A stretch of 64,000 nucleotides of DNA from Promethearchaeota archaeon (lineage in GTDB: Archaea; Asgardarchaeota; Lokiarchaeia; Sigyniarchaeales; SOKP01). Positions 5,333-44,143 of the stretch are shown in pieces (position 1 is the first letter of the stretch; each line of letters begins with the position of its first letter). The notes beneath the pieces are model-generated. The model made no database searches, was not told the DNA's origin, and worked only from the letters and a program-made list of their open reading frames with translations. Where the stretch lies: NCBI GenBank assembly GCA_048938025.1, contig JBHLMP010000009.1:17130-81129 (forward strand), given 5' to 3'. The translations under genes were made by a program, and so were the position numbers.

Positions 5333-5468
5333 GTATAATATCCACCTTTAATTTTTAATAAAAAAATGAAGTTATTATAATTAATATTGATTGAATTAGT
5401 TAAAAAGTTTTAATTAATTTGAGATCTTTGACCTTTTTGATCAATTTTTAGGGGTCAATATGTATTTT

Positions 5469-6245
5469 TTAATAAAATTTTCTTCTAAAATCTTTAATAT
5501 ATTGATCTTTATCTTCATATTCATACCAAGCAGAACCATATTTTTCTAATTCATACGCATCTTTATATGATTTATCCATTAAATGGTTACTACATAATTT
5601 AATAGCATTTAGGACAGTTTGATTTTTTGGGAAGAGAAATTTAGCTTTATCCATAGCAGCTTCCATTAATTCTTCTTGGGAATCAACTATTTGATCAATT
5701 AATCCAATTTCTAATGCCTTTGTAGAACTGATCTTTTCAGCAAACATTAGAATTCTTTTTGTCCAAGTAATTCCTATAACTCTTGTCATTAACACAATTG
5801 TACCGGTACCAGGAAAAATACCTAAATTTATTTCAGGCATCATGAAAATACTATCTTTAACAGCTATTCGATAATCAGAGCAGAGGGAATAGGCAACACC
5901 GTCACCCATCGCCTTACCATTAATAGCACAAATGGTTGGCTTTCCATAATATATTAATTTCACAATAGAAGCAGCAGTTTGTTCATATTCCTTAACAGCA
6001 GCATGATTACTTCCATCTACAGAATCTATATCCATCCCTGTTGTAAAACTTGAACCATTTCCAGTTAAGATAATTCCTCTTATTTTTTCATTATGTATAC
6101 AAAACTCAATTGCTTTTTTAAGCTCCTTAAGCATTTTAATAGTTAAAGCATTTGCTCGTTCTACTCGATTTAAGGTAATTATACCAAATCTTTTTTTTAT
6201 TGAAAATTCAATAAATTCTCCAAGTTCTAAACCTTCAAATGACAT
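5469..6245 (-). CDS. Enoyl-CoA hydratase/isomerase (crotonase) family protein
   Basis: ITLNR..NAL, FTTGMD oxyanion motif, KPTICAING, PE..G..P, ALEIGLID. Confidence 0.9.
   Translation of the reverse strand: MSFEGLELGEFIEFSIKKRFGIITLNRVERANALTIKMLKELKKAIEFCIHNEKIRGIILTGNGSSFTTGMDIDSVDGSNHAAVKEYEQTAASIVKLIYYGKPTICAINGKAMGDGVAYSLCSDYRIAVKDSIFMMPEINLGIFPGTGTIVLMTRVIGITWTKRILMFAEKISSTKALEIGLIDQIVDSQEELMEAAMDKAKFLFPKNQTVLNAIKLCSNHLMDKSYKDAYELEKYGSAWYEYEDKDQYIKDFRRKFY
5661..5717. repeat. 57-nt near-identical segment shared by the two crotonase genes (copy 2 at 6488-6544)
   Basis: ttccattaa(t/a)tcttcttgggaatcaactatttgatcaa(t/c)taatccaatttctaatgc, 2 mismatches by direct comparison. Confidence 0.8.
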
Positions 6246-6289
6246 TTTTATTCCTTTTTATTCTTCTTTAGTTGAAAAATTTTTTAAAA

Positions 6290-7072
6290 TTATAGTAATG
6301 ATAATTTTTCTCTAAAATCATTTATAAATTTACTTTTATTAGCATATTCAAACCAGCTTGAAGCTTCTTTTTCTAATTCATAAGCATTATGATAATTTTT
6401 ATCAAGTAAATGATTTGAACATAATTTAATAGCATTTAGAACAATCTGGTTTTTAGGAAAGAGAAATTTTGCTTGATCTAAGGCAGTTTCCATTAAATCT
6501 TCTTGGGAATCAACTATTTGATCAACTAATCCAATTTCTAATGCTTTTTCAGAGCTAATCTTTTCAGCTAGCATTAACATCTTTTTTGTCCAAGGAATCC
6601 CGATAATTCTTGTCATTAATATTATACAACCAGTGCCCGGAAAAATACCAGAAAAGATTTCAGGATATTGAAAATAACTATCTTTGACACCTATTCTATA
6701 ATCACAACATAAAAGAAATACAACACCTTCACCCAAACAACGACCATTTATAGCAGCAATCGCGGGTTTTCCATTAAATAATAACATACAAATCTCCGCA
6801 GCAGTTCTTTCAAGGTCTTTTACTGCAGTATTGTCACTACCATCAATAAAACCCAAGTCCATACCTGTACTAAAAGTTGTCCCATTCGCAGTTAGGATTA
6901 AACCTCGAATTTTTTCTGAATTTTGACAGTATTCAATTGCTTTTTTTAAAAATCTCAATTGTTCAACTGTAAAAGCGTTAGATCTATGAACCCTATTAAG
7001 TGTTATTATAGCAAATCTCTTTTTTACATCAAATTCGATGTATTCTCCAAATTCAAGATCTTTTAGAGACAT
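6290..7072 (-). CDS. Enoyl-CoA hydratase/isomerase (crotonase) family protein, tandem paralog
   Basis: Same motifs (FSTGMD, KPAIAAING, YPE..GIFPG); clearly homologous end to end to 5469-6245. Confidence 0.9.
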   Translation of the reverse strand: MSLKDLEFGEYIEFDVKKRFAIITLNRVHRSNAFTVEQLRFLKKAIEYCQNSEKIRGLILTANGTTFSTGMDLGFIDGSDNTAVKDLERTAAEICMLLFNGKPAIAAINGRCLGEGVVFLLCCDYRIGVKDSYFQYPEIFSGIFPGTGCIILMTRIIGIPWTKKMLMLAEKISSEKALEIGLVDQIVDSQEDLMETALDQAKFLFPKNQIVLNAIKLCSNHLLDKNYHNAYELEKEASSWFEYANKSKFINDFREKLSLL

Positions 7073-9849: not shown

Positions 9850-11628
9850 ATGAGTAATGAAATTAACGAATATTGGATGAAATTATGGCCCAAAGAAACA
9901 CCTCGCCATGTTGACTATGATAAAATATCCTTAGGAGAGATGTTAAGAAACACTGCTGAAACTTACCCTGAAAGTAAAGCAATATATTTTGAAGGTTTTA
10001 GAATGACATATAAAGAATTAGATAAAGCAGTAGATCAATTTGCTACAGCTCTTGCAAGGATGGGAATTAAAAAGGGTGATGTTGTTCTTATAGATTTACC
10101 TAATGTCCCCCAATTTGTAATAGCATACTATGGTATAGTTCGAATTGGTGCAATAGCAAATCCCATTATTCCTTTAAATAGATTTACCGAAATTGTGCAT
10201 CAAACAAATGATTCTAAAGGAAAAATGCTTATAATTTTAGATGTTCTTTATGAAGAACATTTGCATAAAAATGATTTGACTAAAATGCCCACTTTGAAAG
10301 ATATTATACTGACTGGAATTGCCGAATATCTACCCCCAATGAAAGCTAAATTAGGAACTGCTTTAGGAAAGGTACCGAGAATGAAGAAATGGCCAAAAAA
10401 AGTAGGAGATGTGAATTTTCATGAATTTCAAGATTTTTTGTCAAGAGGATTTCCAATCGATTTACCTGATGTAAAAATTGACCCGATTAATGATGTTTCA
10501 ACTTTAATATACACGGGTGGTACTACAGGGCTTCCAAAAGGGTGTATGATGTCACATTTTAATTTTGTGGTAAATGCGCAACAGGGTAGTACTTTTGTGC
10601 GAACTCAATTACCAAAAGTAGAAGAAACTTTAGGTAAAGGGGGAATGTTTGTGGTTTTGCCTTTAGCACATGAATTCGCATTATCAATAGCTATGAATAT
10701 TGGAGTATATCATAGTTATAATCTTATATTATTCCCACAACCTCCTGCCAAGCTTTCAAAAATATTAAAAATGATTAAAAAGGAAAATGTAACTTTTGGC
10801 CCTGGAGTGCCAACTTTATGGAATAAGATTAGCCAAGACCCCGATTCTATTAAATATAAAGGGAAACTTGATTCTCTTATTGCATGCTTAAGTGGGGCTT
10901 CTGCTCTTCCTTTAGAAGTGAAACAAGAATTTGAGGATATTACTGGTGCATTAATCGTAGAAGGTTTTGGAATGAGTGAGACCAGTCCAATATTAACAGT
11001 CACCCCATTCCATAAATATAAAGAAAATACAGTAGGTTTCCCAGTGTCAGATACATTGATAAAAATTGTTGATCCTGAAGATGGTACTAAAATCTTACCC
11101 CAATGCCCCAATGAATCCTGCGAAGATTGTGGTACAAATGAAGCACAATACATTGGTGAGATTTGCGGATGTGGACCCCAGGTATTTCTAGGGTATTTAA
11201 ATAGACCAGATGCTACTGAATATGCATTGAGAAAAGATTCAAAAGGAAGAACCTGGTATTATACTACAGATATTGGTTGTATAGACCGTGATGGATATCT
11301 ACATATTAAGGACCGTAAAAGAGATATGATTAAATATAAGGCACATAGTGTATTTCCAAGAGAAGTAGAAGATTTGATGTATCTTCATGAAGCTATTAAT
11401 GAAGTTGGCGTTGTTGGGGTTCCAGATCCAGAAGTGGGAGAAAATATTAAAGCTTATGTATCCCTCAAACCAGAATATCAAGGTAAGATATCAGAAGGTG
11501 ATCTAAGAGAATGGTGTAAAGCAAATATTTCGGCATTTAAATATCCTAGAATTATTGAGATTATCCCAGAATTGCCTAAGTCTGTAGTAGGTAAAATATT
11601 ACGGCGTGAATTAAGAACTAAAGAATAA
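9850..11628 (+). CDS. Long-chain fatty-acid--CoA ligase (AMP-binding)
   Basis: YTGGTTGLPKG, GFGMSE, TDIG..DRKRD, PKSVVGKILRR. Confidence 0.93.
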   Translation: MSNEINEYWMKLWPKETPRHVDYDKISLGEMLRNTAETYPESKAIYFEGFRMTYKELDKAVDQFATALARMGIKKGDVVLIDLPNVPQFVIAYYGIVRIGAIANPIIPLNRFTEIVHQTNDSKGKMLIILDVLYEEHLHKNDLTKMPTLKDIILTGIAEYLPPMKAKLGTALGKVPRMKKWPKKVGDVNFHEFQDFLSRGFPIDLPDVKIDPINDVSTLIYTGGTTGLPKGCMMSHFNFVVNAQQGSTFVRTQLPKVEETLGKGGMFVVLPLAHEFALSIAMNIGVYHSYNLILFPQPPAKLSKILKMIKKENVTFGPGVPTLWNKISQDPDSIKYKGKLDSLIACLSGASALPLEVKQEFEDITGALIVEGFGMSETSPILTVTPFHKYKENTVGFPVSDTLIKIVDPEDGTKILPQCPNESCEDCGTNEAQYIGEICGCGPQVFLGYLNRPDATEYALRKDSKGRTWYYTTDIGCIDRDGYLHIKDRKRDMIKYKAHSVFPREVEDLMYLHEAINEVGVVGVPDPEVGENIKAYVSLKPEYQGKISEGDLREWCKANISAFKYPRIIEIIPELPKSVVGKILRRELRTKE

Positions 11629-11665: not shown

Positions 11666-12706
11666 TTAAGATGATTTTACAAATTCATTTGAATTTTTAA
11701 GATAAATTTCTGCTTCTTTTACCATATTTTCAATAATATCTTTTACATTATCGAGACTATTGATTATCCCACAACTTTGACCTAACGGAACGGCGCCATT
11801 TTCTATATCTCCATAATATACAATTTCATAATTCTTTTGATCATCAAGAAAGTCTTGGATTGACATTGCACTCTCCTTCGCAATTTTCTCGTTTTTAGTT
11901 TTAACAGAATCATGATGAGCAGTATATTTATTCTTCCATAACCTTATCGGAGCTATGAATCCTGTTACAACTGTGGTATCTTGAGGTTTTGATGGGGATA
12001 CAATCTGTTTGTAATTTTCATGAAATTCACTATCATTTGAGGCAATAAATCTAGTTCCCATGGCGATTGCTCCCGCTCCCATTGCTAATGCTCCAGCAAG
12101 CCCTACACCAGTTGCAAAACCTCCACATAAAATTATGGGAATGTCAGGGAATGTTTGTTTTACCTGTTGAATCAAAACTAATGTTGATGTTTTCTCATAA
12201 GATTGATGTCCTCCACCCTCAAAACCGGTAACTACAAGTCCATCGACTCCTGCATCTACACACTTTCTAGCTAGCCAATATGCTGGAGCTACATGGTAAT
12301 TTTTAATTTCAGACACTTTTTTTAGTTTCTGATAATTGTTACTTTTTTGTAACATACGAGCGGAACCAGCAGAAGTTATTGCATACCTCACTTGTTCTCT
12401 TAATTTTGGTTTGCTCATAATGAACTTGGGTATTTCTCTGCAAAGCTTTAAGGCATCCATCTGCAACCTTGCTGTTCTAATATTGAAACCAAATGGTTTG
12501 TCTGTATGCTCAATAACATATTCCATATTTTTCTTCATTTCCTCAGTACTACTTTTACCGAATAAATTAGTGTGACTTAAAACTCCCATTCCTCCAGCTT
12601 CAGATACTGCTACTGTTAATTCCGTGGTATAAAAAGGTCCCATTGGTGCTGCAACAATTGGATGCTTAATTCCTAACATTTTGGTTACGTTTGTCTCTAA
12701 TACCAA
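11666..12706 (-). CDS. Nitronate monooxygenase / FabK-like FMN-dependent enoyl-thioester reductase
   Basis: LGIKHPIVAAPM, VSEAGGMG, GFEGGGH, ILCGG, GAIAMGTRF, GQSCG. Confidence 0.88.
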   Translation of the reverse strand: MVLETNVTKMLGIKHPIVAAPMGPFYTTELTVAVSEAGGMGVLSHTNLFGKSSTEEMKKNMEYVIEHTDKPFGFNIRTARLQMDALKLCREIPKFIMSKPKLREQVRYAITSAGSARMLQKSNNYQKLKKVSEIKNYHVAPAYWLARKCVDAGVDGLVVTGFEGGGHQSYEKTSTLVLIQQVKQTFPDIPIILCGGFATGVGLAGALAMGAGAIAMGTRFIASNDSEFHENYKQIVSPSKPQDTTVVTGFIAPIRLWKNKYTAHHDSVKTKNEKIAKESAMSIQDFLDDQKNYEIVYYGDIENGAVPLGQSCGIINSLDNVKDIIENMVKEAEIYLKNSNEFVKSS

Positions 12707-12866: not shown

Positions 12867-14108
12867 GTGAAGAAAGTTGCAATTATAGGGATAGGGATTA
12901 CTCCTTTTAAAGCGAGATATTTAGACAAAACCTACTTTGAATTGGCTTATGATGCAACGAAACTTGCACTAAATGATGCAAATAATAATGGAGCAGAAAT
13001 AACTCATAAGGATCTGCAATCCACAGTATATGGAATTTATAATGAATTATTTGAACGTCAATTTATGCCAGATATTTTTATAAATTCATACATAGGTATG
13101 AATAATAAACCAGGCACACGTATAGCAACAGGAGGGGCAACAGGAGGATATACTGTAAGGATGGCATATGCAGAAGTAGCTTCTGGCTTATCTGACTTAT
13201 GTCTATGTATAGGAGTCGAAAAATGTAACGATTGCTATGACGAACAAACAGGTACAACTACGCCAGAGGTATTGAACGCTATTGCATATTCTGCTGATAT
13301 GACTTATGAATATCCTATGGGAATGCTGGCTGCCAGTTCTTATGTCTCGATGGTAAATGCACATTATGAGGAATTTGGGAATCCAACAGAAGAGCAAATG
13401 GCTTTGGTATCTGTTAAAAATCATGGAAATGCTATAAATAACCCAAAAGCACAATCTCCAATGAAAATAACAGTTGAAGATGTAATGAACTCAAGAATAA
13501 TATGCTATCCATTTAAAATGTTAGATTGTTGTTTATATTCAGAAGCATCAGCAGCTTTAATTCTCGCAAATGAAGATAAAGTAAAGGATCTAAAAATTGA
13601 GAACCCAATCTGGATTACTGGTGTGGCAGCAACAAATACTGATTGCTTTATAGGAAACAGAGAAGATATGGGACGTCTCTATTCTAATATTTATGCTGCA
13701 AAAGCAGCTTATAAAATGGCAGGATTAGATTATAACAAAATTAAGACACAAATTGATTTAGCGGAACTTCATGATGCTTTTAGTGGACAAGAGGTTATCA
13801 GCTATGAGGAGCTTGGGTTTGTTCCATTTGGGGAAGGAGGCAATTGGATAGAAACAGGTGGTCCTTTTATCGATGGTGAATTACCATGTTGTCCTAGCGG
13901 TGGATTGATTGGATGTGGTCATGCTGTGGGCGCTACAGGAATTATGTCCACAGGGGAAGCAGCTCTTCAGCTTCGAGAGGATGCTGGGAAGCATCAAGTA
14001 AAATCAATTGAAAATGGTAGAGCTATTGCTCATTCAATCGGAGGACCTGGAGCAGCATATGCAGCGGTTATAGTAATGTCAAATGAGGAGGGGTTGAGAA
14101 AGGCGTGA
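12867..14108 (+). CDS. Thiolase-fold protein (SCP-x type) lacking the nucleophilic Cys
   Basis: KVAIIGIG, KNHGNAINNPKA, ELHDAF, SGGLIGCGHAVGATG; the Cys loop reads TGGATGG. Confidence 0.88.
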   Translation: MKKVAIIGIGITPFKARYLDKTYFELAYDATKLALNDANNNGAEITHKDLQSTVYGIYNELFERQFMPDIFINSYIGMNNKPGTRIATGGATGGYTVRMAYAEVASGLSDLCLCIGVEKCNDCYDEQTGTTTPEVLNAIAYSADMTYEYPMGMLAASSYVSMVNAHYEEFGNPTEEQMALVSVKNHGNAINNPKAQSPMKITVEDVMNSRIICYPFKMLDCCLYSEASAALILANEDKVKDLKIENPIWITGVAATNTDCFIGNREDMGRLYSNIYAAKAAYKMAGLDYNKIKTQIDLAELHDAFSGQEVISYEELGFVPFGEGGNWIETGGPFIDGELPCCPSGGLIGCGHAVGATGIMSTGEAALQLREDAGKHQVKSIENGRAIAHSIGGPGAAYAAVIVMSNEEGLRKA

Positions 14109-14599
14109 GTGAAGAATTTCAAGATCATCAAGTAAGAGATATAATAAAAATCAATTACAAATATACGATGGGAGGACAATCTAAATTTTTTCTTGAAGTT
14201 ATGAATAACAAGAAATTATTAGGTACTAAATGTACCAAATGTGGGAAAACTTGGATGCCTCCAAGAATTAATTGCTCTGATTGTTTTGTTCCTGCTGAAT
14301 GGGTGGAATTGAACCAAACAGGAACCATCCAAGTCAGCACCATAGTTTGGTATACCACTTCTGCTTTCATTAAAGCAATCCCATATGGTATAGGGTTTAT
14401 AAAATTAGATGGCGCAGAAACCGCATTACTTCAAGGAATTTTTTCAGAAAATTTAGTCCCTTCTAAGATTAAGAGAGGAAGAAGAGTTAGAGCAGTTTTT
14501 AACAAAGTAAGAGAAGGGAAAATGACAGATTTTTTCTTTGTTCCAGAAGATGAATATGAAAACTGGATAAATAAACCTGAATATGAAGGAGGGAACTAA
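14105..14599 (+). CDS. DUF35 Zn-ribbon/OB-fold thiolase partner protein
   Basis: CTKC...PPR..CSDC followed by OB fold; GTGA overlap with the thiolase stop. Confidence 0.9.
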   Translation: MSEEFQDHQVRDIIKINYKYTMGGQSKFFLEVMNNKKLLGTKCTKCGKTWMPPRINCSDCFVPAEWVELNQTGTIQVSTIVWYTTSAFIKAIPYGIGFIKLDGAETALLQGIFSENLVPSKIKRGRRVRAVFNKVREGKMTDFFFVPEDEYENWINKPEYEGGN

Positions 14600-14601
14600 A
14601 A

Positions 14602-14973
14602 ATGGGTATAGCAAGAGATAATTTAACAAAAATTATTGAAAACATAAACCACAATGAAAAAGCTCAAGTTGTTTTTGTAACTAATATTGCTGGGAAGGAT
14701 GTTGATTGGGAAATGTCATTTCAATTCAACCTTGATAATGAAGACCCTTTTTATGTAGATATTAAAAACCGCAAAGCAATTTTGTTAGAAGGGACCAAAT
14801 CAGATTCAGTTATAGTTATGTCTGGAGATCCTAATTCAATTGTTAAAATCTGCAACGGCAAGGGTGATTTCACTCACGCAATCAGTCGTGAAGAGATTAC
14901 TGTAGAAAAAGGTAGGGTTATGGATGTTATTAGACTAACAAGAGCAATAACAATCGTTTTAAAAACAAAATAA
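14602..14973 (+). CDS. SCP2 sterol/lipid-binding domain protein
   Basis: 123 aa; FQFNL...FYVDIK...EG...G.F..AI....I.V..G pattern; third gene of the thiolase operon with GGAGG SD. Confidence 0.68.
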   Translation: MGIARDNLTKIIENINHNEKAQVVFVTNIAGKDVDWEMSFQFNLDNEDPFYVDIKNRKAILLEGTKSDSVIVMSGDPNSIVKICNGKGDFTHAISREEITVEKGRVMDVIRLTRAITIVLKTK

Positions 14974-15014
14974 TTACTTTTTTACAATTTTTTTTATTAT
15001 TTTTATTAATAGAA

Positions 15015-15401
15015 TTAAATATTTGAAAAATCTTCCATAAACCAATTGAATACAGGGGGAATATTTTCAATGATTCTATATTTAATTTTTTTATGTAAAA
15101 TTACAATAAAAATCTCATCTTGTTTTCGCACAAATTGATAATATTCATTATTGGAGATCTCTTTTAATTTATTTTTATCAGTGGTATCAATATGGAAAAG
15201 TAAATAATCATTTATATCTGCATATTCTGGACCCCAAGAGTATTCAATTTCTTTTTGTAAAAAAGAAAGAAAAGTATTAAGAGTTTGGTCTAGTGCGATC
15301 CACCCATATAAGTAAATATCTTGATCTTCATAAACTACGATGAAATTACCGGTAACTTCTGGAAAGCGTACATTTTCTTCAATCTTTTTAAAATTATCCA
15401 T
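15015..15401 (-). CDS. Hypothetical protein (128 aa)
   Basis: Real start likely ATG at 15401 (MDNFKK); the upstream part of the listed ORF is antisense to the threonine aldolase gene. Confidence 0.55.
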   Translation of the reverse strand: MDNFKKIEENVRFPEVTGNFIVVYEDQDIYLYGWIALDQTLNTFLSFLQKEIEYSWGPEYADINDYLLFHIDTTDKNKLKEISNNEYYQFVRKQDEIFIVILHKKIKYRIIENIPPVFNWFMEDFSNI

Positions 15402-15486
15402 ATTAAAAACTTCAATGAAAAATACTGTTAATAATTTTTTATTTAAATGATTCATTATAAAAACACAAAATATTATACTTAAGATT

Positions 15487-16542
15487 TTGATTAAATTGAA
15501 AATTGTTGATCTCCGTTCCGATACGGTAACAAAGCCATCTCCTGAAATGTGGGAAGTAGTTAAATCATTAGATAATACTAAGATAGGTGATGATGTTGAA
15601 AAAGAAGATCCAACTGTTAATGAATTAGAAGATAAAGCAGCAAAGATAGTGGGAAAAGAGGCAGCATTATTTGTCACTTCAGGAACACAAGGAAACCTTG
15701 TCTCTTTATTATCCCAAACCACACCTGGAGATGAGATAATGGTTGAGGAACTTAGTCATATTTATGGTCATGAAGTAGGAAGTGCTGCTCGAATCGGAGG
15801 ATTAATGATTTGTACCTATCCTTCAAATAAAGGTATCCCAAACTTAGATGACCTTCAGAACATGATTCGAGATAAGGAAGATATTCATGAACCTCCAACA
15901 ACTCTTTTTTGTGCTGAAAATACTCATAATTTTCATGGAGGTATTATAATCAAACCTGAAGATCTTAATAAAATGAAAAAATTTGCAGGAAAAAACAATT
16001 TAAGATTTCATCTTGATGGTGCAAGAATATTTAATGCTTCGATAGCCCTCAACCGACCTGCTTCAGATTTCACTCAATATGTTGATAGCGTTATGTTTTG
16101 TCTATCCAAAGGCCTTTCCTGCCCAGTTGGTTCTATTGTTGCTGGTTCATACGATTTTATTGAAAGAGCGAGAAGATATAGAAAAATGTTAGGAGGAGGG
16201 ATGAGGCAAGCAGGAGTTATTGCTTGTTTTGGGTTAGTGGCACTCGAACCGAAATGGATAAAAAGATTAGAGGAAGATCATAAGAATGCTAAATTGCTTG
16301 CTGAAGGTCTTAAGAATCTAGAATTATCAATTAAAGTTCAACAACCAGAAACTAATATTTTCTGGGTAGATTTTCCACTTAATATACCAATGGATAAACT
16401 AATGACTAATTTATCTGAAAATGGGATTAAAACCTTCAATTTTAACCATAGAATACGTTTCGTTACTCATTATGGACTAAATGAAGATGATATTCAATAT
16501 AGCATAGGAATAATTGAAAAAATTTTACTTAGTTTGTTCTAA
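15487..16542 (+). CDS. ltaE: Low-specificity L-threonine aldolase (PLP)
   Basis: DLRSDTVTKP, GDD..EDPTV, SGTQGN, ENTHN, HLDGARIFNA, CLSKGL, GGGMRQAG. Confidence 0.93.
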   Translation: MIKLKIVDLRSDTVTKPSPEMWEVVKSLDNTKIGDDVEKEDPTVNELEDKAAKIVGKEAALFVTSGTQGNLVSLLSQTTPGDEIMVEELSHIYGHEVGSAARIGGLMICTYPSNKGIPNLDDLQNMIRDKEDIHEPPTTLFCAENTHNFHGGIIIKPEDLNKMKKFAGKNNLRFHLDGARIFNASIALNRPASDFTQYVDSVMFCLSKGLSCPVGSIVAGSYDFIERARRYRKMLGGGMRQAGVIACFGLVALEPKWIKRLEEDHKNAKLLAEGLKNLELSIKVQQPETNIFWVDFPLNIPMDKLMTNLSENGIKTFNFNHRIRFVTHYGLNEDDIQYSIGIIEKILLSLF

Positions 16543-16581
16543 AATAAAAAAATAGAATAAATAATTAAATAAAAATAATAA

Positions 16582-17112
16582 TTACTCTTTGCTGATATCT
16601 AAATCCTTTGCGTCATCTTCTACTAAATCATAGTATTCTATGTCATTTAATCCGCCAGTGATATTTTCTGCCCAATGAACTTTAACTGGCATTCCAATAT
16701 AAGTATCTTTTAAATCCACTTCAGGATTTAACTCACCCATCTCTGTTGTATCAGCTCCATCTTGGCGGATCAATACCATTGGCTTTTCCCGAATTTCACC
16801 TGTTTCTGGATCTTTTAGATAAGCTATTGCATATGTAGAAACTTCACCTGTTTCTCGTAAATCAACCCATTGATCTGGTTTTATCATACATTTTCCACAC
16901 ACATATCTAGGAGGGAAAAAAACTCTATTACATCCTGGACATTTCAAACCAATCAATTTCTTCTCTTTTAATTTTTCTAAAAAAGGTTGAAAATGAGTAA
17001 TATTAAATTTAAAATTATAACTGGTCAAATACCAATTACTTGGCATTGTTCTAGTCCTTTTATAGTCTCTTTTAACGTAGTCCAAAGATTTCCTTTGAGT
17101 TAATTTTGACAG
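16582..17112 (-). CDS. DUF35 Zn-ribbon/OB-fold protein
   Basis: CPGC..FPPR..CGKC, IGMPV; in-frame CTG at 17112 follows a GGAGGTGA SD (listed TTG start at 17085). Confidence 0.88.
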   Translation of the reverse strand: MSKLTQRKSLDYVKRDYKRTRTMPSNWYLTSYNFKFNITHFQPFLEKLKEKKLIGLKCPGCNRVFFPPRYVCGKCMIKPDQWVDLRETGEVSTYAIAYLKDPETGEIREKPMVLIRQDGADTTEMGELNPEVDLKDTYIGMPVKVHWAENITGGLNDIEYYDLVEDDAKDLDISKE

Positions 17113-17118
17113 CTTAAT

Positions 17119-18366
17119 TCACCTCCATTTTCTCTGGGGTTCATCTGACATCACCATCATTGTACATAAATTAAGTATTCCGCCCCACCCATGCCCGATA
17201 GCAGTATGAACCGTTTTAGGTACTTGATTACTGGCTTTTCCCATTATCTGTAAGGCAGCAACAGCAGGTCTCTCTAATGCAGATGCTCCAATTGCATTAG
17301 TAGAATTAACACCTCCTGAACAGCATATTGGCAATTCACCATTTAACGCAGTTACTCCATTTTCGTACATCTGTGGAGCTGTAGTTTCTTCAAATAAACC
17401 CAATTTTTCAACCCACATGAGTTCCTGATTAGGGAATGGAGCATAAACTTCAGCATAATCTATTTCTTTTCGAGGAAAGGAGATCCCTGCCTGATTATAA
17501 GCCAATTCAGATGATTTCATTGCCCCTAATTGTTCTGAGGGATCTATTTGTCCTGATCCACTACAGTCATATCCAAGAACAGCTGTCTCATGAGCAATAC
17601 TAGCCACACCATTTACATAAACGGGAATATCACACACATCTTTAGCTTTTTCTTCTGTTGTAAATAAAACCGCACAAGCACCATCACTTGCAGGACAAAC
17701 CATCCCATATCTTAAGGGATAGGATATATAGGGCGTGTCCAAAACTTCTTCAATGGTAACATTTGGCATTTTTAAATGAGCCCACCAAGTTTTTGCAGCA
17801 TTACGTCTATTTTGTACCACCACTCTAGCCAAATCTTCTTCAGTTATCTTTGATTTACTCATATAATTAGTTGCTTGATATGAGGCTACACCAATAGCTG
17901 CACCTGCTGATAAAATACGTGTTAATCGTTCATAATCAATTCCTAGAGTATTGTAAATAGTAATTTCCCCATAGGCTACACTAGCTAAACCAGTAGCAGT
18001 GTTACCCTGGCTTTGTTGTTCAAAGCCAACGGCAAGTACTGTATCAATTCCGGGTAATCCTGCTGCAACAGTATAATAACCGGCAATTGCAACAGTACCT
18101 CCTGTGGTACCCCCAGTTGTAACTCGCATTAATGGTTTATTTCTCGCTCCCATCCAATCGGTCATCCATAATTCCGGAATATTTGACCCTTCAAAGGCAG
18201 GCATATTTCCATTTACATAAGCATCAATATCTTCAAAACTTACGCTTGGAACTTTCTTTAAGCAATCTTCTATTGCTTCACTCACTAATTCAGGCATACT
18301 AACATCAGATCGTTTTGACGCATGTTCACTAAATCCTGCTGAAACTATTGCCACTTGCCTTCCCAT
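17119..18366 (-). CDS. Ltp3-like thiolase-fold protein (putative aldolase subunit)
   Basis: RVTTGGTTGG (no Cys), AEVYAPF replacing HDAF, GGVNSTNAIGASA replacing GHP, GHGWGG; start at MGRQVAIV. Confidence 0.82.
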   Translation of the reverse strand: MGRQVAIVSAGFSEHASKRSDVSMPELVSEAIEDCLKKVPSVSFEDIDAYVNGNMPAFEGSNIPELWMTDWMGARNKPLMRVTTGGTTGGTVAIAGYYTVAAGLPGIDTVLAVGFEQQSQGNTATGLASVAYGEITIYNTLGIDYERLTRILSAGAAIGVASYQATNYMSKSKITEEDLARVVVQNRRNAAKTWWAHLKMPNVTIEEVLDTPYISYPLRYGMVCPASDGACAVLFTTEEKAKDVCDIPVYVNGVASIAHETAVLGYDCSGSGQIDPSEQLGAMKSSELAYNQAGISFPRKEIDYAEVYAPFPNQELMWVEKLGLFEETTAPQMYENGVTALNGELPICCSGGVNSTNAIGASALERPAVAALQIMGKASNQVPKTVHTAIGHGWGGILNLCTMMVMSDEPQRKWR

Positions 18367-18367
18367 T

Positions 18368-19510
18368 TTAATTACTCCCCTCCAATACATACACGATATT
18401 ATTTTGAGCACACATACCTATTTGACCAGAGGCTACAGCTTTTTTTGCCCCTTTAACTTGATATTGATTCCCTTCTCCTTTTAATTGTTTAGCAGCTTCG
18501 ATTATTCTTATTAATCCTGTTGCACATGGTGGATTCCCTCCTATTGCTCCTCCAGAAGGATTTATTGGTAATTCGCCATTTATATTTGAATCAATATTTA
18601 AACCTTTACCTTTTTCAGCAAACCCCAACGCCTCAGTAAATATTAGTTCTTCATGAGCATAAGCCTCAAATAATTCAGCGATATCTATTTCGTCTCGTGG
18701 ATTTTTAATTCTAGCCGATTTAAATGCCATTTTGCCAGCTAATTCCATTGATTTACTTGTTGATAAATCTCTATCACCAAGATAATAACCTTCTTGACTA
18801 TAGCCTACACCCGTGATCCAGACAGGATTTTCTGTTATTTTTAAAGCTTGTTTCTCAGGTGCTAATAATAAAGCAGCAACTCCATCACAAGGTTGAGCAA
18901 CCATTAATTCTGTTACTGGATCAGCATAAATTTCTGACTCTAACACATCTTTAACGGTAAGGTTTGGATTTTGAGATTCTGCTAAGGATAATGGATTTTT
19001 AGCGGCATTTTTCCTATTTTTTACAGCGATTTTAGCAATATCTTCAGCACTAATGCCATACTTCTCCATATATGCTCGCATTTGAAATCCAGCAGCAGTA
19101 ATATCATTAACATAAGCAACGGGTCTTTCCCAAGTTGGATCTGTTTCATATAATCGAGCAGAGTGATATGGAAAGCATGAAGCCATACTTCCACCCCAAA
19201 CAACTGCTAGTTTATGATTACCAGATAATATCCTCATTAATCCATACAAAACAGCATGAGCACCATCCATTTCTACTTTACTCTCATCGCTCATATATCC
19301 TCCACCAACTTCAACAGTAAAGCAATTTGATATCGTGCGTCCTTCATAATAATCATTAGTGCAAGAGATAACAGTTGTAATATCCTTTTTCTTTAAACCA
19401 ACCATGTCAAGTGCACCTCTAACAGCTTCAAAAATCATTTCATACCGACCATAATTAGCATCTGAATACAATTTTACTTGATTATATCCTACAATACCTA
19501 CTTTTTGCAT
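18368..19510 (-). CDS. Ltp4-like thiolase-fold protein (putative aldolase subunit)
   Basis: DYYEGR, ESKVEMDGAHA (no Cys), AELFEAYAHEE, NPSGGAIGGNPPCATGLIR. Confidence 0.82.
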   Translation of the reverse strand: MQKVGIVGYNQVKLYSDANYGRYEMIFEAVRGALDMVGLKKKDITTVISCTNDYYEGRTISNCFTVEVGGGYMSDESKVEMDGAHAVLYGLMRILSGNHKLAVVWGGSMASCFPYHSARLYETDPTWERPVAYVNDITAAGFQMRAYMEKYGISAEDIAKIAVKNRKNAAKNPLSLAESQNPNLTVKDVLESEIYADPVTELMVAQPCDGVAALLLAPEKQALKITENPVWITGVGYSQEGYYLGDRDLSTSKSMELAGKMAFKSARIKNPRDEIDIAELFEAYAHEELIFTEALGFAEKGKGLNIDSNINGELPINPSGGAIGGNPPCATGLIRIIEAAKQLKGEGNQYQVKGAKKAVASGQIGMCAQNNIVYVLEGSN

Positions 19511-19528
19511 GGTTCTTTTTACCTCCCA

Positions 19529-19993
19529 CTATAATTTTCTGAAACCCTTAATATCTGAAGGGTCACCTTTTGTTTTTTCTTCCCATACAGCTTTTACTTT
19601 CATTCCAGTTTTGATCTCTTCTGGGTTTATATCCAAAAGACGATAAACTATCCCTGTATTGCTACCATCAATTTGTATCATCCCGATTATTTGAGGTTTT
19701 TTTACTTTTCGAGTAGTTCTATCATTCACCTTATAATATGTGACAGTGTAATTTAGCAAAATTCCTGTTTCAGGCAAATTAATCCAGTTTTGGTCCAAAG
19801 GAATTGTAATATTACATATTCCACAGATTTTTCTTGGAGGTACAAAAATTTTTCCACATTTCGGACATTTATTTCCAATGAATTTCTTGTTTTCAAGAGC
19901 ATCATAGAATTTATCCATGTACTGACCAACCCAAAAATTAAATTCCGCTCTTATAAGTCCCTTATTAGCTACTATTACCTTTTCTTCACTCAT
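19529..19993 (-). CDS. DUF35 Zn-ribbon/OB-fold protein
   Basis: CPKC..VPPR..CGIC, IKTGMKVKAVW. Confidence 0.9.
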   Translation of the reverse strand: MSEEKVIVANKGLIRAEFNFWVGQYMDKFYDALENKKFIGNKCPKCGKIFVPPRKICGICNITIPLDQNWINLPETGILLNYTVTYYKVNDRTTRKVKKPQIIGMIQIDGSNTGIVYRLLDINPEEIKTGMKVKAVWEEKTKGDPSDIKGFRKL

Positions 19994-20207
19994 TTTAATT
20001 TCTACTCTTATGAATTTTAATATTATTAATAGTAGTAAATAGTTTTAAAATAATTTGAAAATGCTTTATCCAAAAGTGTCTGGTTTAAAAAAAGCAACTT
20101 AAGTAAATAGGTTCCTAAATATTTTATTTTATAATTTTTTTTTCTATTTAATTTAAATTTGAAATTATTAATAAGAAAAATAAGGAAAAAAAAATTTTAA
20201 AATAGGA

Positions 20208-20810
20208 TTAAAATGTAAAACCCTCTGGTAGTTCTGACTCGTGTGTACCTTTAACAACAAACATTAAATCCATAATTGTATAGGTTGGATTCTTGGTTCG
20301 AAAGATTGGCACAACACTTTTTCCTATTTCTGGTTCTCCGACAACTAACACGCTCATAAGAATAGTGACTACTTCTTCGTCAAATTCAACGTTTATGAAT
20401 TTGATTGGTTTTGGCAAGACATTAAAAGCTCCAGAACGATGAGTAATAATAAATGAGTGGATTTTTGCAGTTTTCTGAGCTTTTTCAGTAATATCTATAA
20501 CGGTATTTTTTCTTAGGCAATCTGGGCAATAAATTCTAAAAGGCAAGTGAATTGATCCTTTAAATTCACATTGATCATTATCACATCTTGTCGCCATTAG
20601 TTTTCCCTTTCCAAGAGATTCGAAAAAAATAGCCTCACCACCATAAGAGTGGATATACGTCATATCTCTTGGATTTGTAACTCCAGCCAATTTTCCAGTA
20701 TCTTCGTTAAAAATGGGTTGATTTGCCTCTATAATATGAAATTTTCCTTTTGGTTTGTATCTTCTATTAATTATGGAAACAAAACCTTTTTCTTCTTCAG
20801 TTTTTGGCAT
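20208..20810 (-). CDS. DUF35-like Zn-ribbon/OB-fold protein with N-terminal extension
   Basis: CDNDQC...P.R.YCPDC, OB fold; start MPKTEEE after GGAGG SD, directly behind the thiolase. Confidence 0.82.
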   Translation of the reverse strand: MPKTEEEKGFVSIINRRYKPKGKFHIIEANQPIFNEDTGKLAGVTNPRDMTYIHSYGGEAIFFESLGKGKLMATRCDNDQCEFKGSIHLPFRIYCPDCLRKNTVIDITEKAQKTAKIHSFIITHRSGAFNVLPKPIKFINVEFDEEVVTILMSVLVVGEPEIGKSVVPIFRTKNPTYTIMDLMFVVKGTHESELPEGFTF

Positions 20811-20815
20811 CTTTT

Positions 20816-22237
20816 TTATTCCTCCTTTATTAAGTGATTTGGATGCATTAAAATCGTACAAGTCACATGTGATCCTACTCCAGCGTGACTTATTGCTAAA
20901 CCTCTTTTTGCACCTTTTACTTGAAGACTTGTCCAATCCTTTGGTTTTTCACGACCAAATTCTTTCCATTTTTCTTCAGGCTCATGAATTTCATCCCATC
21001 GATTCCAGAGATGATATCCTATTTCAGCAATTTGCATAAGACCAGTTGCTCCTACAGCATGCATACAACCGATTAATCCACCACATAAATTGCTAGGTAA
21101 TTTACCTGGTTTTTTAGTATTTGGGTTTGTATGATATGCATCACCTGTTTCGATATAATCACGTCCATCTCCATACGAACGAATACCAATATCTTCATAA
21201 GTTTGAATATCACTAATTGTAAAGGCATCATGGAGTTCCACAACATCAAGATCGTCAGTTGGATCAATAATCCCCGTCATATTATATGCATAATAAGCTG
21301 CTATACGTGCAGCTAAAAAACTGCTAAAACCGGGATATCTATCACCCCCGGGAAATCTTTTACCTAAATTATCATATTGTCCTGGCTTTTCATTTGGTAA
21401 AAGGGGTATTTTCATATTACGACGATCAGCCACTCTTAAAGTGTGGCTTCCTGCACCAATCCAAATCCGAAGTGGATTATCTGTTATTTCATATGCTGTT
21501 TTTTCATCACAAACAATACCACATGCAGCTCCAACACTCATTAGACAACAATCTAACGCACGTAAGGGATAAGCAATAACAGGAGAATTAATTACATCCT
21601 CAACCGTGATTTTCATAGGCCCATGTGCGTGAGGATTCATTCTGGCATAACCACGATTTTTAACTGCAATTTCAGCCATAGTTTTTCTAAAAGAATCTTC
21701 TGCTTTACCAAAAATTTGCCAATATCTTTGAGCCATTACAGCATAATAACCAGTATAAATATGACCCAATGGTGTTTCCCAATCTTTATCAGCAGCACAA
21801 GATATAAGGTGGTTTCCCTCGTCAGTTGGGACTTCATCCATTCTCTCCCACCCCATAGCTAGAGCGCAATCACTATATCCAGAAGCAACAGTTTTAATTG
21901 CTTCCCACATCGTTGAACCTCCTGTAGCTCCACCTGTTTTGACACCAATGGTTCCTAATGGATCTAAACCCAATCTATCGTGAATAACTGCTTCTCCTAG
22001 TAATTGATCTCCAAAATGATCTGCAAAATGCCCATAATAAGCAGTATGTATGAAACTCTTCAGTTCAGCAGGTGTCATTTTAACAAAATCTGCTGCAGCT
22101 GTTAATGCTTGGATGCATAATTCTTCAGTTCGCGTTTCTGGAAAAGCTCTGTCGAATTTTGACATACCAACTGTAGCTAAATAAACTGGTCGCATTAATT
22201 TCGGTATTTTTAATTGTTTATCACTAAATTTAATCAT
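20816..22237 (-). CDS. Thiolase-fold protein (SCP-x type) lacking the nucleophilic Cys
   Basis: VKTGGATGG, AVKNRGYARMNPHA, ELHDAF, GGLIGCMHAVGATG. Confidence 0.88.
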   Translation of the reverse strand: MIKFSDKQLKIPKLMRPVYLATVGMSKFDRAFPETRTEELCIQALTAAADFVKMTPAELKSFIHTAYYGHFADHFGDQLLGEAVIHDRLGLDPLGTIGVKTGGATGGSTMWEAIKTVASGYSDCALAMGWERMDEVPTDEGNHLISCAADKDWETPLGHIYTGYYAVMAQRYWQIFGKAEDSFRKTMAEIAVKNRGYARMNPHAHGPMKITVEDVINSPVIAYPLRALDCCLMSVGAACGIVCDEKTAYEITDNPLRIWIGAGSHTLRVADRRNMKIPLLPNEKPGQYDNLGKRFPGGDRYPGFSSFLAARIAAYYAYNMTGIIDPTDDLDVVELHDAFTISDIQTYEDIGIRSYGDGRDYIETGDAYHTNPNTKKPGKLPSNLCGGLIGCMHAVGATGLMQIAEIGYHLWNRWDEIHEPEEKWKEFGREKPKDWTSLQVKGAKRGLAISHAGVGSHVTCTILMHPNHLIKEE

Positions 22238-22406: not shown

Positions 22407-23714
22407 ATGAAGATTGTCTTATTTATTATGGATAAAAGAGTCCCAGAATTACCAAAACTTGAAATTAGCGGATATATTGCTGAATTAGACTTATTAAATA
22501 ACCCAATATTTACAGTTAAAGAGAAAGAATTTATATCTGAATTTTATGACTTTATGGAAGAAAATCTTGAAAGAGATCTGAAGACCTTAGAAGAACTAAA
22601 TTATTTGGCAGAAGAACCGATACAAGAGAAGAAACGGGAAATTGTTGTTAATTTAATAAAAAAATTAGCAGAAAAAGGTTATTACAGTACGGTTATTGAT
22701 TCAGAAGATTATGACCTTGGTAAAGTAACTCGAAATGCTCTTATAGCATTAGCCCTAAGCGGAGGTTTTTGGTCAACAAATAGTGATAGGTATATTAATG
22801 GTAATTGGAGTGTTGAGATGGGTAGATTAGCAGGAGGAACTCTTTACTGCAATCCAGTAAATTATAAAGCAAATGACTATCAGAGAAGAGAATTTTTAAA
22901 TCCTGTTGTTAAATATGGCGCAATGGCAGCTTCAGCTATGACAGAATTTAATGCCGGTAGTGATATTATTAGAATTGAACTAAGACTAGATGAAAAAGAT
23001 AATGAAGTAATTGCAAATGGCAAGAAACTCTTTATAGTAAACGGAATGTTAGCAGATTATATTATGTTATATGGTAGATTAAATAATGGAAAATTAGGAG
23101 CAATTATTGTAGATACGGAAAATCAACAACTGAAAAATTTTGAATCATCACGGGTAATTATGTATGGTATGAGAGACGCCTTTGTCAGTCGCTTAGTATT
23201 TGATGATGTAAGACTCCCTAAAGAAAATCTTCTTGAAGGGGATGGTTTAGATATTATGTTTCATCAATTAACTGAAGAACGACTGGTAATTAGTTCAGAA
23301 GCTTTGGGAGATAGCATAAAAAAATTATTCTATTCTCATAGTTTTGCACTTCAACGTGAACAATTTCAACGAAAACTATATCAATATCAAATAATTCGAT
23401 TTCCAATTACTAAGAATATGCGTGAAGTGAATCTATATCTTTCAGCATTGTTGAATTATACTCGAGAAATTGATAACAAACCACAATTAGGAAGTTCAAA
23501 AATAATGGCTTCTCAGGCAATGGGTTTGAAAATTGAAACTTGTGAATTGGCTTTTCAAAGCTCAATTGATTTATTTAGAACTATGGGTGGTCGTGGATTT
23601 ACAGAACAATACTGTAATCAAATTGGGCTTCTTGATGCTTATTGTATGATACATGGCGGAGGTAGTCATTATATTTTAGGAGATTCAGAATCTCGAAAGT
23701 TTTTTAAGCGGTAA
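22407..23714 (+). CDS. Acyl-CoA dehydrogenase family protein
   Basis: AMTEFNAGSD, NGKKLFIVNG, FDDVRLP, REQFQRKL, MGGRGF. Confidence 0.88.
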   Translation: MKIVLFIMDKRVPELPKLEISGYIAELDLLNNPIFTVKEKEFISEFYDFMEENLERDLKTLEELNYLAEEPIQEKKREIVVNLIKKLAEKGYYSTVIDSEDYDLGKVTRNALIALALSGGFWSTNSDRYINGNWSVEMGRLAGGTLYCNPVNYKANDYQRREFLNPVVKYGAMAASAMTEFNAGSDIIRIELRLDEKDNEVIANGKKLFIVNGMLADYIMLYGRLNNGKLGAIIVDTENQQLKNFESSRVIMYGMRDAFVSRLVFDDVRLPKENLLEGDGLDIMFHQLTEERLVISSEALGDSIKKLFYSHSFALQREQFQRKLYQYQIIRFPITKNMREVNLYLSALLNYTREIDNKPQLGSSKIMASQAMGLKIETCELAFQSSIDLFRTMGGRGFTEQYCNQIGLLDAYCMIHGGGSHYILGDSESRKFFKR

Positions 23715-43984: not shown

Positions 43985-44143
43985 TTTTTACACCTTTTTT
44001 AGTTTTAATTAATTTTAGTCATTATTAAATTAGACATCTATTTTATATAAAATTTTAAAATAAAATTAATAACATTGAAAAATTGTTAGAGATAAATAGT
44101 AATTATAATTAAATTTCTGAAATTATAAATTTAATTGATTAAA

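Follow-up and report, generated by a model that had tools for sequence, protein, structure and literature searches.

A 64,000-nucleotide stretch of a Promethearchaeota archaeon genome, here called the window, carries between positions 12867 and 22237 nine genes that encode four SCP2-type thiolase-fold proteins (T1–T4), four DUF35 proteins (D1–D4) and a divergent SCP2 protein (S1). The genes form three tight groups, T1-D1-S1 on the forward strand and D3-T3-T2-D2 and T4-D4 on the reverse strand, in which the spacing between genes ranges from a 4 nt overlap to a 33 nt gap. T1–T4 are predicted not to be thiolases, because the two residues that define these enzymes are missing. We tentatively infer that T1 and T4 act on carbon–carbon bonds beside a coenzyme A (CoA) thioester, cleaving or forming them without a covalent intermediate and most likely by a retro-aldol reaction. 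The sequence comparisons suggest that T4-D4 is a widely conserved enzyme for carbon–carbon bonds that has so far gone unrecognised. An earlier note on this DNA had described one dedicated archaeal system. The region consists instead of three separate modules, whose families have different distributions, and T4-D4 occurs in many bacterial phyla but in only 20 of the 201 Asgard genomes sampled.

Active sites of the four thiolase-fold proteins

T1 (413 aa, 12867..14108, +), T2 (415 aa, 17119..18366, −), T3 (380 aa, 18368..19510, −) and T4 (473 aa, 20816..22237, −) all exceed the Pfam curated cut-offs for both Thiolase_N and Thiolase_C_1. The start of T2 was set to the ATG at 18366, its best 120 homologs being 413–423 aa long and mostly 415. 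The curated NCBIfam cut-offs were reached by none of the four, with best scores of 322 against 420 for T1, 363 against 514 for T2, 212 against 455 for T3 and 671 against 695 for T4. The model nearest to T4, NF004982, is described merely as 'thiolase domain-containing protein', and a lookup in the ESM Atlas returned generic thiolase clusters only.

The catalytic columns were read by aligning the proteins with HMMER to two solved archaeal thiolases, 6ESQ_A (T1 and T4) and 7YVY_A (T2 and T3), whose nucleophile loop reads EAACASG; T2 was also aligned to 4YZO_A and T3 to Sal (9MYR_A). The alignment of this loop is unambiguous because its flanks align on both sides (R-V/I before; V-A-S-G and G-V-E-K after). 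The column of the nucleophile Cys is occupied by Gly in T1 (G90, ATGGATGG), T2 (G86, TTGGTTGG) and T4 (G103, KTGGATGG), and the loop of T3 has a deletion of three residues (VE---MDGAH). The strings that the earlier note had quoted for this position are exact, and its statement that the nucleophile Cys is lacking from all four proteins is borne out by the alignments. The second catalytic Cys, located in the HDCF motif of SCP2-type thiolases, is gone as well. The motif reads HDAF in T1 (H302-D-A304-F) and T4 (H336-D-A338-F), YAPF in T2 (Y308-A-P310-F) and FEAY in T3 (F281-E-A283-Y284). The His of the GHP loop is kept in T1 (H352) and T4 (H393) and is Asn in T2 (N357) and T3 (N326). The oxyanion-hole pair, formed by the His residues of the HDxF and GHP loops, is complete in T1 and T4 and absent from T2 and T3. 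Two types of active site are apparent: T1 and T4 have Gly and Ala in place of the two Cys together with both His, and T2 has Gly, Tyr and Asn. No recognisable catalytic residue is left in T3.

The ping-pong mechanism of thiolases needs a nucleophile Cys and an acid/base Cys. With both missing, T1–T4 should therefore be incapable of this covalent mechanism and of forming an acyl-enzyme. Pseudogenes and assembly errors were considered as an origin of the missing residues and rejected, the motifs being fixed in 109 T1, 120 T4 and 119–120 T2 database homologs. Because the motifs are invariant across the T1 and T4 homologs, the Cys losses appear fixed rather than the result of decay. The T1 set comprised 109 full-length homologs (120 listed, 11 under 380 aa dropped), all of which have Gly at the nucleophile column (GG(A/S)TG) and 108 of which have HDAF. 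In this family 20 of the 30 catalytic-loop positions are invariant, compared with 80 of the 417 columns overall (odds ratio 10.9, p 3e-9, for four catalytic loops chosen from thiolase motifs). This concentration of invariant columns in the catalytic loops points to a working active site in T1. In the T4 family, 177 of the 473 columns are invariant in 121 sequences, including GGATGG, HDAF, H393 and C231. The retention of both His and the invariant catalytic loops suggest that T1 and T4 still bind acyl-CoA and stabilise an enolate. A Cys relocated to the nucleophile position was also sought and rejected, as the nucleophile loop contains none and T1 homologs vary at the Cys of the D-C-C loop. Such a relocated Cys remains conceivable for T4, where C231 is invariant.

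The closest functional parallels are Ltp2 and Sal, which the available passages of PMC12329534 describe as having Gly at the nucleophile position and catalysing a retro-aldol reaction; there, the position of the HDxF His holds the catalytic Tyr of Ltp2 (YDHF), Sal (YDCY) and SLP (YDCF). Y308 of T2 aligns on this His in the alignments to both 4YZO_A and 7YVY_A. The base Tyr of Ltp2 and Sal is present in T2 only, the residue being His in T1 and T4 and Phe in T3. T2 further resembles these enzymes in an Asn amide where Sal has Gln352. T1 and T4 differ from them in combining His-Asp-Ala-Phe with the His of GH(A), in contrast to Tyr/Tyr or Tyr/Cys. Aligned to Sal, T3 has Phe at Tyr302, Ala at Cys304 and Asn at Gln352. 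The second catalytic residue of Ltp2 and Sal is absent from all four proteins, which have Ala or Pro at the position of Cys304 and His or Asn at that of Tyr344/Gln352; the match between Tyr344 and the GHP His is based on equal spacing (50 residues) rather than on a printed alignment.

DUF35 partners and the spread of T4-D4

The earlier note had paired each thiolase-fold protein with a DUF35 protein, and the pairing holds for all four. D1 (14105..14599, +), whose first 4 nt are shared with the end of T1, and D3 (19529..19993, −), the first gene of its operon, exceed the Pfam cut-offs for both zf-ChsH2 and OB_ChsH2_C. D1 has a zinc ribbon (C43-x2-C46 / C57-x2-C60) followed by an OB fold. D2 (16582..17085, −), the last gene of the D3-T3-T2-D2 operon, is above the cut-off for zf-ChsH2 (35.8 bits) and below it for the OB half (18.2 bits), and the Cys pairs of the ribbon are present in both D2 and D3. 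D4 (200 aa, 20208..20810, −) is divergent; its start was set to 20810 in line with 16 orthologs of 196–200 aa. Searched alone, D4 gave only a weak OB match (16.9 against 27.1 bits). However, its orthologs matched OB_ChsH2_C in 10 of 17 cases and zf-ChsH2 in 4 of 17 (E<=0.01), and the ribbon residues C76, C81, C95 and C98 are invariant among them. The structural model of D4 (predicted local distance difference test, pLDDT, 84.6) retrieved DUF35 proteins as the best Foldseek hits (3IRB with an E value of 1.9e-8, 6OK1_B and 9MYR_B), and all eleven hits with E<=0.001 were DUF35 chains or the close relative Trf. D4 is thus assigned to DUF35 because of the profile hits of its orthologs, the invariant Cys and the Foldseek matches. 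It also carries a conserved N-terminal extension of ~70 aa.

The model of the T4+D4 complex has an ipSAE of 0.68, compared with 0.00 for the best control; of the reference sets, 58 of 80 solved complexes and 2 of 110 mismatched pairs attain the ipSAE mark. Between the three runs, at least 78% of the contacts are shared, and the partner pLDDT is 85 or higher; the alignments were made for this analysis. The pass may partly reflect likeness or memory, since solved thiolase-DUF35 complexes exist. In the model, D4, including the invariant N46, H54, Y56 and E59 of its extension, lies on residues 139–174 and 220–223 of T4, which belong to the loop region of the thiolase fold.

T4 is highly conserved over a wide range of lineages. 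Its best 120 hits are 75–89% identical and include, by NCBI assignment, Planctomycetes, Cytophagales, Krumholzibacteria, Fidelibacterota, Marinimicrobia, Gammaproteobacteria and Thermoplasmatota. A matrix of 17 sequences showed clusters of 85–97% within lineages and a floor of 77–82% across lineages and domains. D4 accompanies T4 in 16 of 16 loci and in 74 of 80 loci of a larger set, with identities of 58–69%. The Asgard genomes with T4 all belong to the window's order. T4-D4 is best read as a module that evolves slowly and has presumably passed from one lineage to another. With 77–82% identity between its archaeal and bacterial members, the latter from no fewer than eight named groups, it is an unusually well-defined target in the search for new carbon–carbon chemistry on CoA esters.

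Very slow evolution would also fit a hub with many contacts, as would be expected if the proteins were catalytically dead scaffolds, that is, pseudo-thiolases that with DUF35 organise or regulate enzymes of beta-oxidation or fatty-acid synthesis. DUF35-mediated assemblies of thiolase with HMGCS and of KT/ACR/HCD are documented in the available parts of 10.1101/2024.07.05.601840, and a scaffold role would parallel these archaeal assemblies. The degeneracy of T3, with its loop deletion and no catalytic residue of either Sal or thiolases, points in the same direction. However, T1 and T4 are most conserved at the former catalytic loops and both His, which a scaffold could dispense with, and GGATGG is fixed across families that are just 35–40% identical overall. 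We therefore consider a pure scaffold role quite improbable.

Two further possibilities for T4-D4 were rejected. It is not its hosts' sole thiolase, as all five other T4-bearing genomes tested hold a classical Cys thiolase. Displacement of a canonical 3-hydroxy-3-methylglutaryl-CoA (HMG-CoA) lyase was examined with NF004283, which we take to be the HMG-CoA lyase model. It scored above the cut-off in none of five T4-bearing genomes (the window's genome and four others, G001–G004), but in only 3 of 14 controls, so that the comparison is weak.

Gene neighbourhoods and the proposed chemistry

Open reading frames (ORFs) were clustered in 80 non-Asgard T4 loci on 79 distinct contigs (L227 and L279 lie on the same contig), six Asgard loci having been removed before counting. 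An acyl-CoA dehydrogenase lies within two genes of T4-D4 in 17 loci and anywhere in the locus in 22. The corresponding counts are 11 and 11 for an XRE-type regulator, 7 and 11 for a crotonase, 7 and 12 for an ACS-type ligase, 5–6 (Thermoplasmatota) and 6 for a two-subunit CoA-transferase, and 5 and 8 for an MDR dehydrogenase. Over the whole locus, a 3-hydroxyacyl-CoA dehydrogenase was found in four cases and a classical thiolase in three. The neighbours of T4-D4 are those of C4/C5 short-chain acyl-CoA metabolism and give no pointer to steroid or hopanoid degradation. The steroid, hopanoid or isoprenoid substrates put forward in the earlier note find no support in these neighbourhoods of ligase, CoA-transferase, dehydrogenase, crotonase and mutase genes; a branched 3-hydroxy-3-methylacyl-CoA remains admissible as a substrate. 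A lyase that uses the hydratase product would be expected to have such neighbours, with dehydrogenase and hydratase genes enriched and 3-hydroxyacyl-CoA dehydrogenase scarce.

To our knowledge, the only thiolase-fold enzymes that work non-covalently with Gly and a DUF35 unit are the retro-aldolases Ltp2 and Sal. In the reaction that we tentatively propose for T1 and T4, the two His would polarise the acyl-CoA thioester and stabilise the enolate, with no acyl-enzyme being formed. The neighbouring acyl-CoA dehydrogenase and crotonase would make a 3-hydroxyacyl-CoA, which would then be split by retro-aldol cleavage into acetyl-CoA and an aldehyde or ketone. The DUF35 subunit would shape the substrate cleft. 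For T4-D4, the substrates would be short (C4–C6) and possibly 3-methyl-branched, for example HMG-CoA, which would yield acetoacetate; 3-hydroxybutyryl-CoA and 3-hydroxy-3-methylbutyryl-CoA are the candidate alternatives. Release of acetoacetate from HMG-CoA would explain the adjacent acetoacetate-activating enzymes. T1-D1-S1 would act on a more hydrophobic acyl-CoA delivered by the SCP2 protein. The aldolase mechanism proposed in the earlier note thus remains plausible: an aldol-type reaction is the most plausible one and T2 has Tyr at the position of the Ltp2/Sal base, but the other three proteins lack this Tyr.

Several observations weigh against retro-aldol cleavage. As T1, T3 and T4 are without the base Tyr of Ltp2 and Sal and none of the four has the second residue, a different base would be required. 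Unlike in ChsH2 and Shy, no MaoC-type hydratase fused to DUF35 was found among the scanned ORFs of the window. Two of the six members of a ligase cluster (651–652 aa) were scanned and both are acetoacetate-CoA ligases (TIGR01217, 939 and 901 against 521 bits); such a ligase is directly beside T4-D4 in loci L228 and L239. In 5–6 Thermoplasmatota loci, T4 comes immediately after co-oriented genes for the subunits of an AtoDA-like CoA-transferase. A place beside acetoacetate-CoA ligase or after a CoA-transferase is the usual site of a true acetoacetyl-CoA thiolase. In three loci, an operon with a classical thiolase, a 3-hydroxyacyl-CoA dehydrogenase and a crotonase lies upstream of T4-D4, and therefore a route that avoids the dehydrogenase is not needed there.

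These operons differ in their further course. Those of L305 and L326 continue with an acyl-CoA dehydrogenase and a B12-dependent acyl-CoA mutase, and that of L269 has two ACS-type ligases instead (genes assigned by Pfam scan in L305 and by cluster in L326 and L269). In L305, the large and B12-binding subunits of the mutase are encoded at 4390-6392, directly upstream of T4-D4; L326 has the same two mutase genes and an extra acyl-CoA dehydrogenase before T4. The substrate of the mutase (isobutyryl-, 2-hydroxyisobutyryl- or pivalyl-CoA) might hint at that of T4-D4.

The same neighbours bear on the possibility that the proteins are thiolases that work independently of Cys, in which free CoA attacks the 3-oxo group or a Cys of the D-C-C loop substitutes, and that T4-D4 is an acetoacetyl-CoA thiolase. 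T4-D4 adjoins acetoacetate-CoA ligase, occupies an AtoB-type position downstream of the AtoDA-like subunits in Thermoplasmatota, and occurs with butyryl-CoA-type dehydrogenase and crotonase genes, a setting that would suit a genuine acetoacetyl-CoA thiolase equally well. The oxyanion-hole His pair is intact and would stabilise the enolate, and C231 is invariant in the T4 family. However, the nucleophilic elbow has no side chain, the acid/base Cys of HDCF is Ala, and the D-C-C loop varies in the T1 family (DCC, DCS, DNC and once ESS). Classical Cys thiolases are present not only in the five other T4-bearing genomes but also in that of the window, and in three loci in the same operon. We know of no thiolase that is free of Cys, and none was found in the literature search. 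Thiolysis by these proteins hence seems unlikely.

The retained His/His site, the replacement of both Cys by small residues and the strong conservation of the catalytic loops would also suit another reaction through an enolate, such as decarboxylation of malonyl- or 3-carboxyacyl-CoA, a hydrolytic retro-Claisen reaction, or epimerisation or isomerisation at the alpha-carbon. The Cys-less trypanosomal SLP reportedly has weak malonyl-CoA decarboxylase activity. The function of SLP is discussed, and Sal was tested with malonyl-CoA, in the accessible parts of PMC12329534. However, no carboxylase or decarboxylase recurs beside T1 or T4, carboxyltransferase genes being found in 2 of the 80 loci, and no neighbourhood calls for an epimerase. 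These alternatives are accordingly regarded as doubtful.

The retro-aldol proposal can be extended to the whole class. In the extended form, thiolase-fold proteins with GG(A/T)TGG and their DUF35 partners would be an old, widespread and so far overlooked class of cofactor-independent acyl-CoA carbon–carbon lyases of anaerobes, and T4-D4 would be an analogue, built on the thiolase fold, of HMG-CoA lyase or 3-hydroxy-3-methylacyl-CoA lyase. We rate this as rather improbable. If it is true, T4-D4 releases acetoacetate or a methyl ketone together with acetyl-CoA, and branched acyl-CoAs derived from leucine or isoprenoids could pass the point at which beta-oxidation stalls. Most 'ketothiolase/DUF35 pairs' of Asgard archaea would then not be thiolases, and the arguments for fatty-acid synthesis or butyrate fermentation that build on them would need revisiting.

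Known relatives, the other modules and neighbouring genes

The proteins share with Ltp2-ChsH2 and Sal-Shy (6OK1, 9MYR) the thiolase fold, the Gly at the nucleophile position (except T3) and the DUF35 unit. However, the DUF35 unit is free-standing here and forms the tail of a MaoC hydratase in ChsH2 and Shy, and the steroid-pathway context is missing. In their pathways, Ltp2 and Sal follow an acyl-CoA dehydrogenase and a hydratase. In phmmer searches with T1–T4, 6OK1 scored 39–87 bits and 9MYR 57–82 bits, compared with 113–170 bits for the best true thiolase with each of the four proteins. The earlier note had counted the proteins among the Ltp2 kind, and these scores speak against such membership. 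T1–T4 are placed outside the Ltp2/Sal clade by sequence and would resemble these enzymes at most in their working.

The closest solved sequences to T1 and T4 are the Cys-bearing archaeal thiolase-DUF35 enzymes (170 bits with T1 and 113 bits with T4), which share the gene order thiolase-DUF35. They are proven thiolases and, unlike T1 and T4, keep the nucleophile Cys (ACASG) and HDCF. The benzoylsuccinyl-CoA thiolase BbsAB of anaerobes (7PXP) is likewise a heteromer of thiolase and DUF35, and BbsB has HDAF and a C-C loop. Unlike the T proteins, BbsB keeps the nucleophile Cys (SACSAG), and the NCBIfam scores for BbsB and BbsA are far below the cut-off here. Actinobacterial Ltp3 and Ltp4 are encoded by two adjacent, unlike thiolase-like genes, as are T3 and T2, but the steroid setting of Ltp3 and Ltp4 is missing here. 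Among NCBIfam models, the best or near-best are NF006180 for T2 (363 against 514) and NF005924 ('lipid-transfer protein') for T3 (193 against 419), which we presume may be the Ltp3/Ltp4 families. Ltp3 and Ltp4 have been proposed as aldol-lyases for C24-branched sterol side chains, as cited from Wilbrink 2012 in a passage of PMC10832528. The best solved match of T2 is 4YZO, a 'putative acyl-CoA acyltransferase' (113 bits) that also has no Cys in the nucleophile column (NTSGSGGS) and, unlike T2, keeps HD and GHP. The search listing of papers citing the 4YZO entry gave no function for it. The literature searched, which left most subscription journals outside, describes neither Cys-less thiolase/DUF35 pairs in archaea nor a GGATGG/HDAF class.

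The T1-D1-S1 module is conserved as a unit among close relatives. T1 is 84–94% identical (median 89) in 80 related loci; where the contig leaves room, D1 directly follows T1 in 73 of 73 loci (67–90% identical) and S1 is present in 63 of 63 (41–80%). S1 (14602..14973, +), the third gene of the T1 operon, encodes a divergent SCP2-like lipid-binding protein. Its own score lies below the SCP2 cut-off (18.7 against 21.3 bits), and 17 of its 18 orthologs match SCP2 with E<=0.01 (best 3.1e-7). The genes flanking T1 are less conserved, with identities of 51–64% for an NMO/FabK-like gene and 59–90% (median 65) for a CoA ligase. In the 201 sampled genomes of the phylum, T1 orthologs of at least 86% identity occur only within the GTDB family of the window itself, in which 40 sampled members hold 26 full-length and 4 split copies. 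Other Asgard families of this sample have only paralogs of 35–41% and a single hit of 59%. More distant T1-D1 pairs (51–56%) come from Thermoplasmata and from anaerobic bacteria (Nitrospirota, Desulfobacterota and unclassified lineages). S1 was not found in any of 14 non-Asgard T1-D1 loci, eight of which have an acyl-CoA ligase nearby and eight an acyl-CoA dehydrogenase. T1 is broken near residue 130–150 in several related genomes (L125:7001-8340, G176:C7, G179:C2, G191:C354 and G149:C6). The L125 copy has a frameshift and an in-frame insert with stop codons, and the rest of its operon looks intact. These broken copies may be pseudogenes or assembly errors.

The best 120 hits of T2 are 85–94% identical, and all those with a named source are from Asgard archaea. 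The motif [RV/RI]xxGGxxGG is present in 119 of them (115 RVTTGGTTGG, 3 RITTGGTTGG and 1 RVTIGGTTGG) and VY(S/A)PF in all 120. In four of five shared loci, conservation is lower in T3 than in T2, and in the fifth it is equal. T3 looks degenerate and is probably a non-catalytic partner of T2. D3-T3-T2-D2 probably forms a heteromer in which T2, with Tyr308, is the active subunit and T3 is inert. A second T3/T2-like pair, with two DUF35 genes behind it, is located on contig C78 of the same genome.

The host genome (3.5 Mb in 88 contigs) has nine SCP2-type thiolase-fold genes, of which two show the nucleophile Cys. One of these two, on C37, has the motifs NYCASG, HDCF and GHP and adjoins an HMGCS-like gene, which is the mevalonate arrangement. 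The second sits at the end of contig C6 and is a fragment (GACASSG) of which the N-terminal part alone is visible. The remaining seven are Cys-less, including the C78 pair and a protein on C88 with NGPASGG and HDAF. The genome also encodes four classical thiolases with complete catalytic residues, and thiolysis is therefore covered without T1–T4. No HMG-CoA synthase match was found on the window's contig; C37 and C46 carry the two HMGCS-like genes that the genome has. The absence of this gene from the contig and the separateness of the present proteins from the mevalonate complex agree with the earlier note. The HMGCS-like gene on C37 (8231-9676, −), outside the window, has a fused C-terminal DUF35 part (C-x2-C...C-x2-C and an OB-like tail); in the solved methanogen complex the corresponding parts are separate proteins.

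A motif survey of 44 sequences found GG(A/T)TGG with HDAF also in Acidobacteria, Bacillota and Dehalococcoidia, in proteins 35–40% identical to T1. The maximum-likelihood tree (44 rows, no outgroup, midpoint root) placed T2/T3 in one group, T1 in another and T4 in a join with a group that includes Cys forms (support 94/90). Other Cys-less forms fall inside the Cys group, with NGPASGG (Pro) in C88a and in a Jordarchaeia protein and ADASGG/HDSF in Archaeoglobales. A single origin of all Cys-less forms was considered and not adopted, as the choice between one and several Cys losses hinges on the root. Four Archaeoglobales loci (L131, L133, L135 and L137) show these ADASGG and HDSF motifs, so that Asp takes the place of the nucleophile and Ser that of the acid/base Cys, which is a predicted third kind of Cys-less active site.

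The earlier note had expected these proteins to be automatically annotated as acetyl-CoA acetyltransferase, and one source does name the homologs so; sources call such proteins acetyl-CoA acetyltransferase or thiolase family protein. In this genome, seven of the nine SCP2-type thiolase homologs cannot be thiolases. According to the available text of 10.1101/2024.07.05.601840, 67% of 62 Asgard genomes have ketothiolase/DUF35 pairs, with a mean of 3.8, and these are taken to hint at the synthesis of fatty acids; cysteines are unmentioned in its sections on these pairs. In the part consulted of PMC7015854 (Imachi et al.), a conserved '3-ketoacyl-CoA thiolase' serves as a marker of butyrate fermentation. 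If the genes counted are of the Cys-less kind, the inferences of fatty-acid synthesis and butyrate fermentation weaken.

The window has a low GC content (26–36%), and the close relatives of its genes come from metagenome-assembled genomes labelled Promethearchaeota (Asgard/Lokiarchaeia-type). The three modules are surrounded by genes for two acyl-CoA ligases, two crotonases, an NMO/FabK-like protein, an atypical acyl-CoA dehydrogenase and a threonine aldolase. Neither a 3-hydroxyacyl-CoA dehydrogenase nor a MaoC hydratase was found among the 39 window ORFs scanned (up to ~48 kb). The acyl-CoA dehydrogenase-like gene (22407..23714, +) is divergent from T4 and has Pfam matches to Acyl-CoA_dh_M and _1 and weak NCBIfam hits; its membership in the module is uncertain, and it is retained beside T4 in two Asgard loci (63–76% identical). 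The NMO/FabK-like flavoprotein gene (11666..12706, −; Pfam NMO, TIGR03151 178 bits against a cut-off of 453) is divergent from T1 and encodes a possible enoyl reductase. Of the 49 loci whose upstream flank reaches 5.5 kb or more, 32 have it upstream of T1 and 13 have an AMP-binding CoA ligase gene there. The latter corresponds in the window to a fatty-acid-CoA ligase-like AMP-binding enzyme (9850..11628, +), assigned by Pfam and by long-chain-fatty-acid-CoA ligase models of NCBIfam that all score below their cut-offs. A threonine aldolase-type pyridoxal phosphate enzyme (15487..16542, +; Pfam Beta_elim_lyase, 302.8 bits) is encoded between the T1 and T2/T3 operons. It recurs downstream of T1 in 11 of the 42 loci whose downstream flank spans 5.5 kb or more; any functional link is tentative. 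An ORF of 235 aa (15015-15722, −) that overlaps the start of this gene in antisense is probably not a real gene. The two crotonase-family (enoyl-CoA hydratase) genes are at 5469..7072 (−; Pfam ECH_1).

Between these crotonase genes and the T1 region, a 694-aa N6 DNA methylase with an Eco57I/MmeI-like domain (7160-9244, +) is probably a type IIG/IIL restriction-modification enzyme. Farther downstream, a Gtr1/RagA-like small GTPase, a eukaryote-type signature protein, is encoded at 45106-46053 (−), and positions 43061-44989 hold the genes FTR (formyltransferase) and MTD (methylene-tetrahydromethanopterin dehydrogenase) of the tetrahydromethanopterin (H4MPT) C1 pathway. A gene of the glycerol-3-phosphate dehydrogenase/oxidase type that depends on flavin adenine dinucleotide (24880-26562, +; DAO and DAO_C) may bear on the debate on glycerol-3-phosphate versus glycerol-1-phosphate lipids in Asgard archaea.

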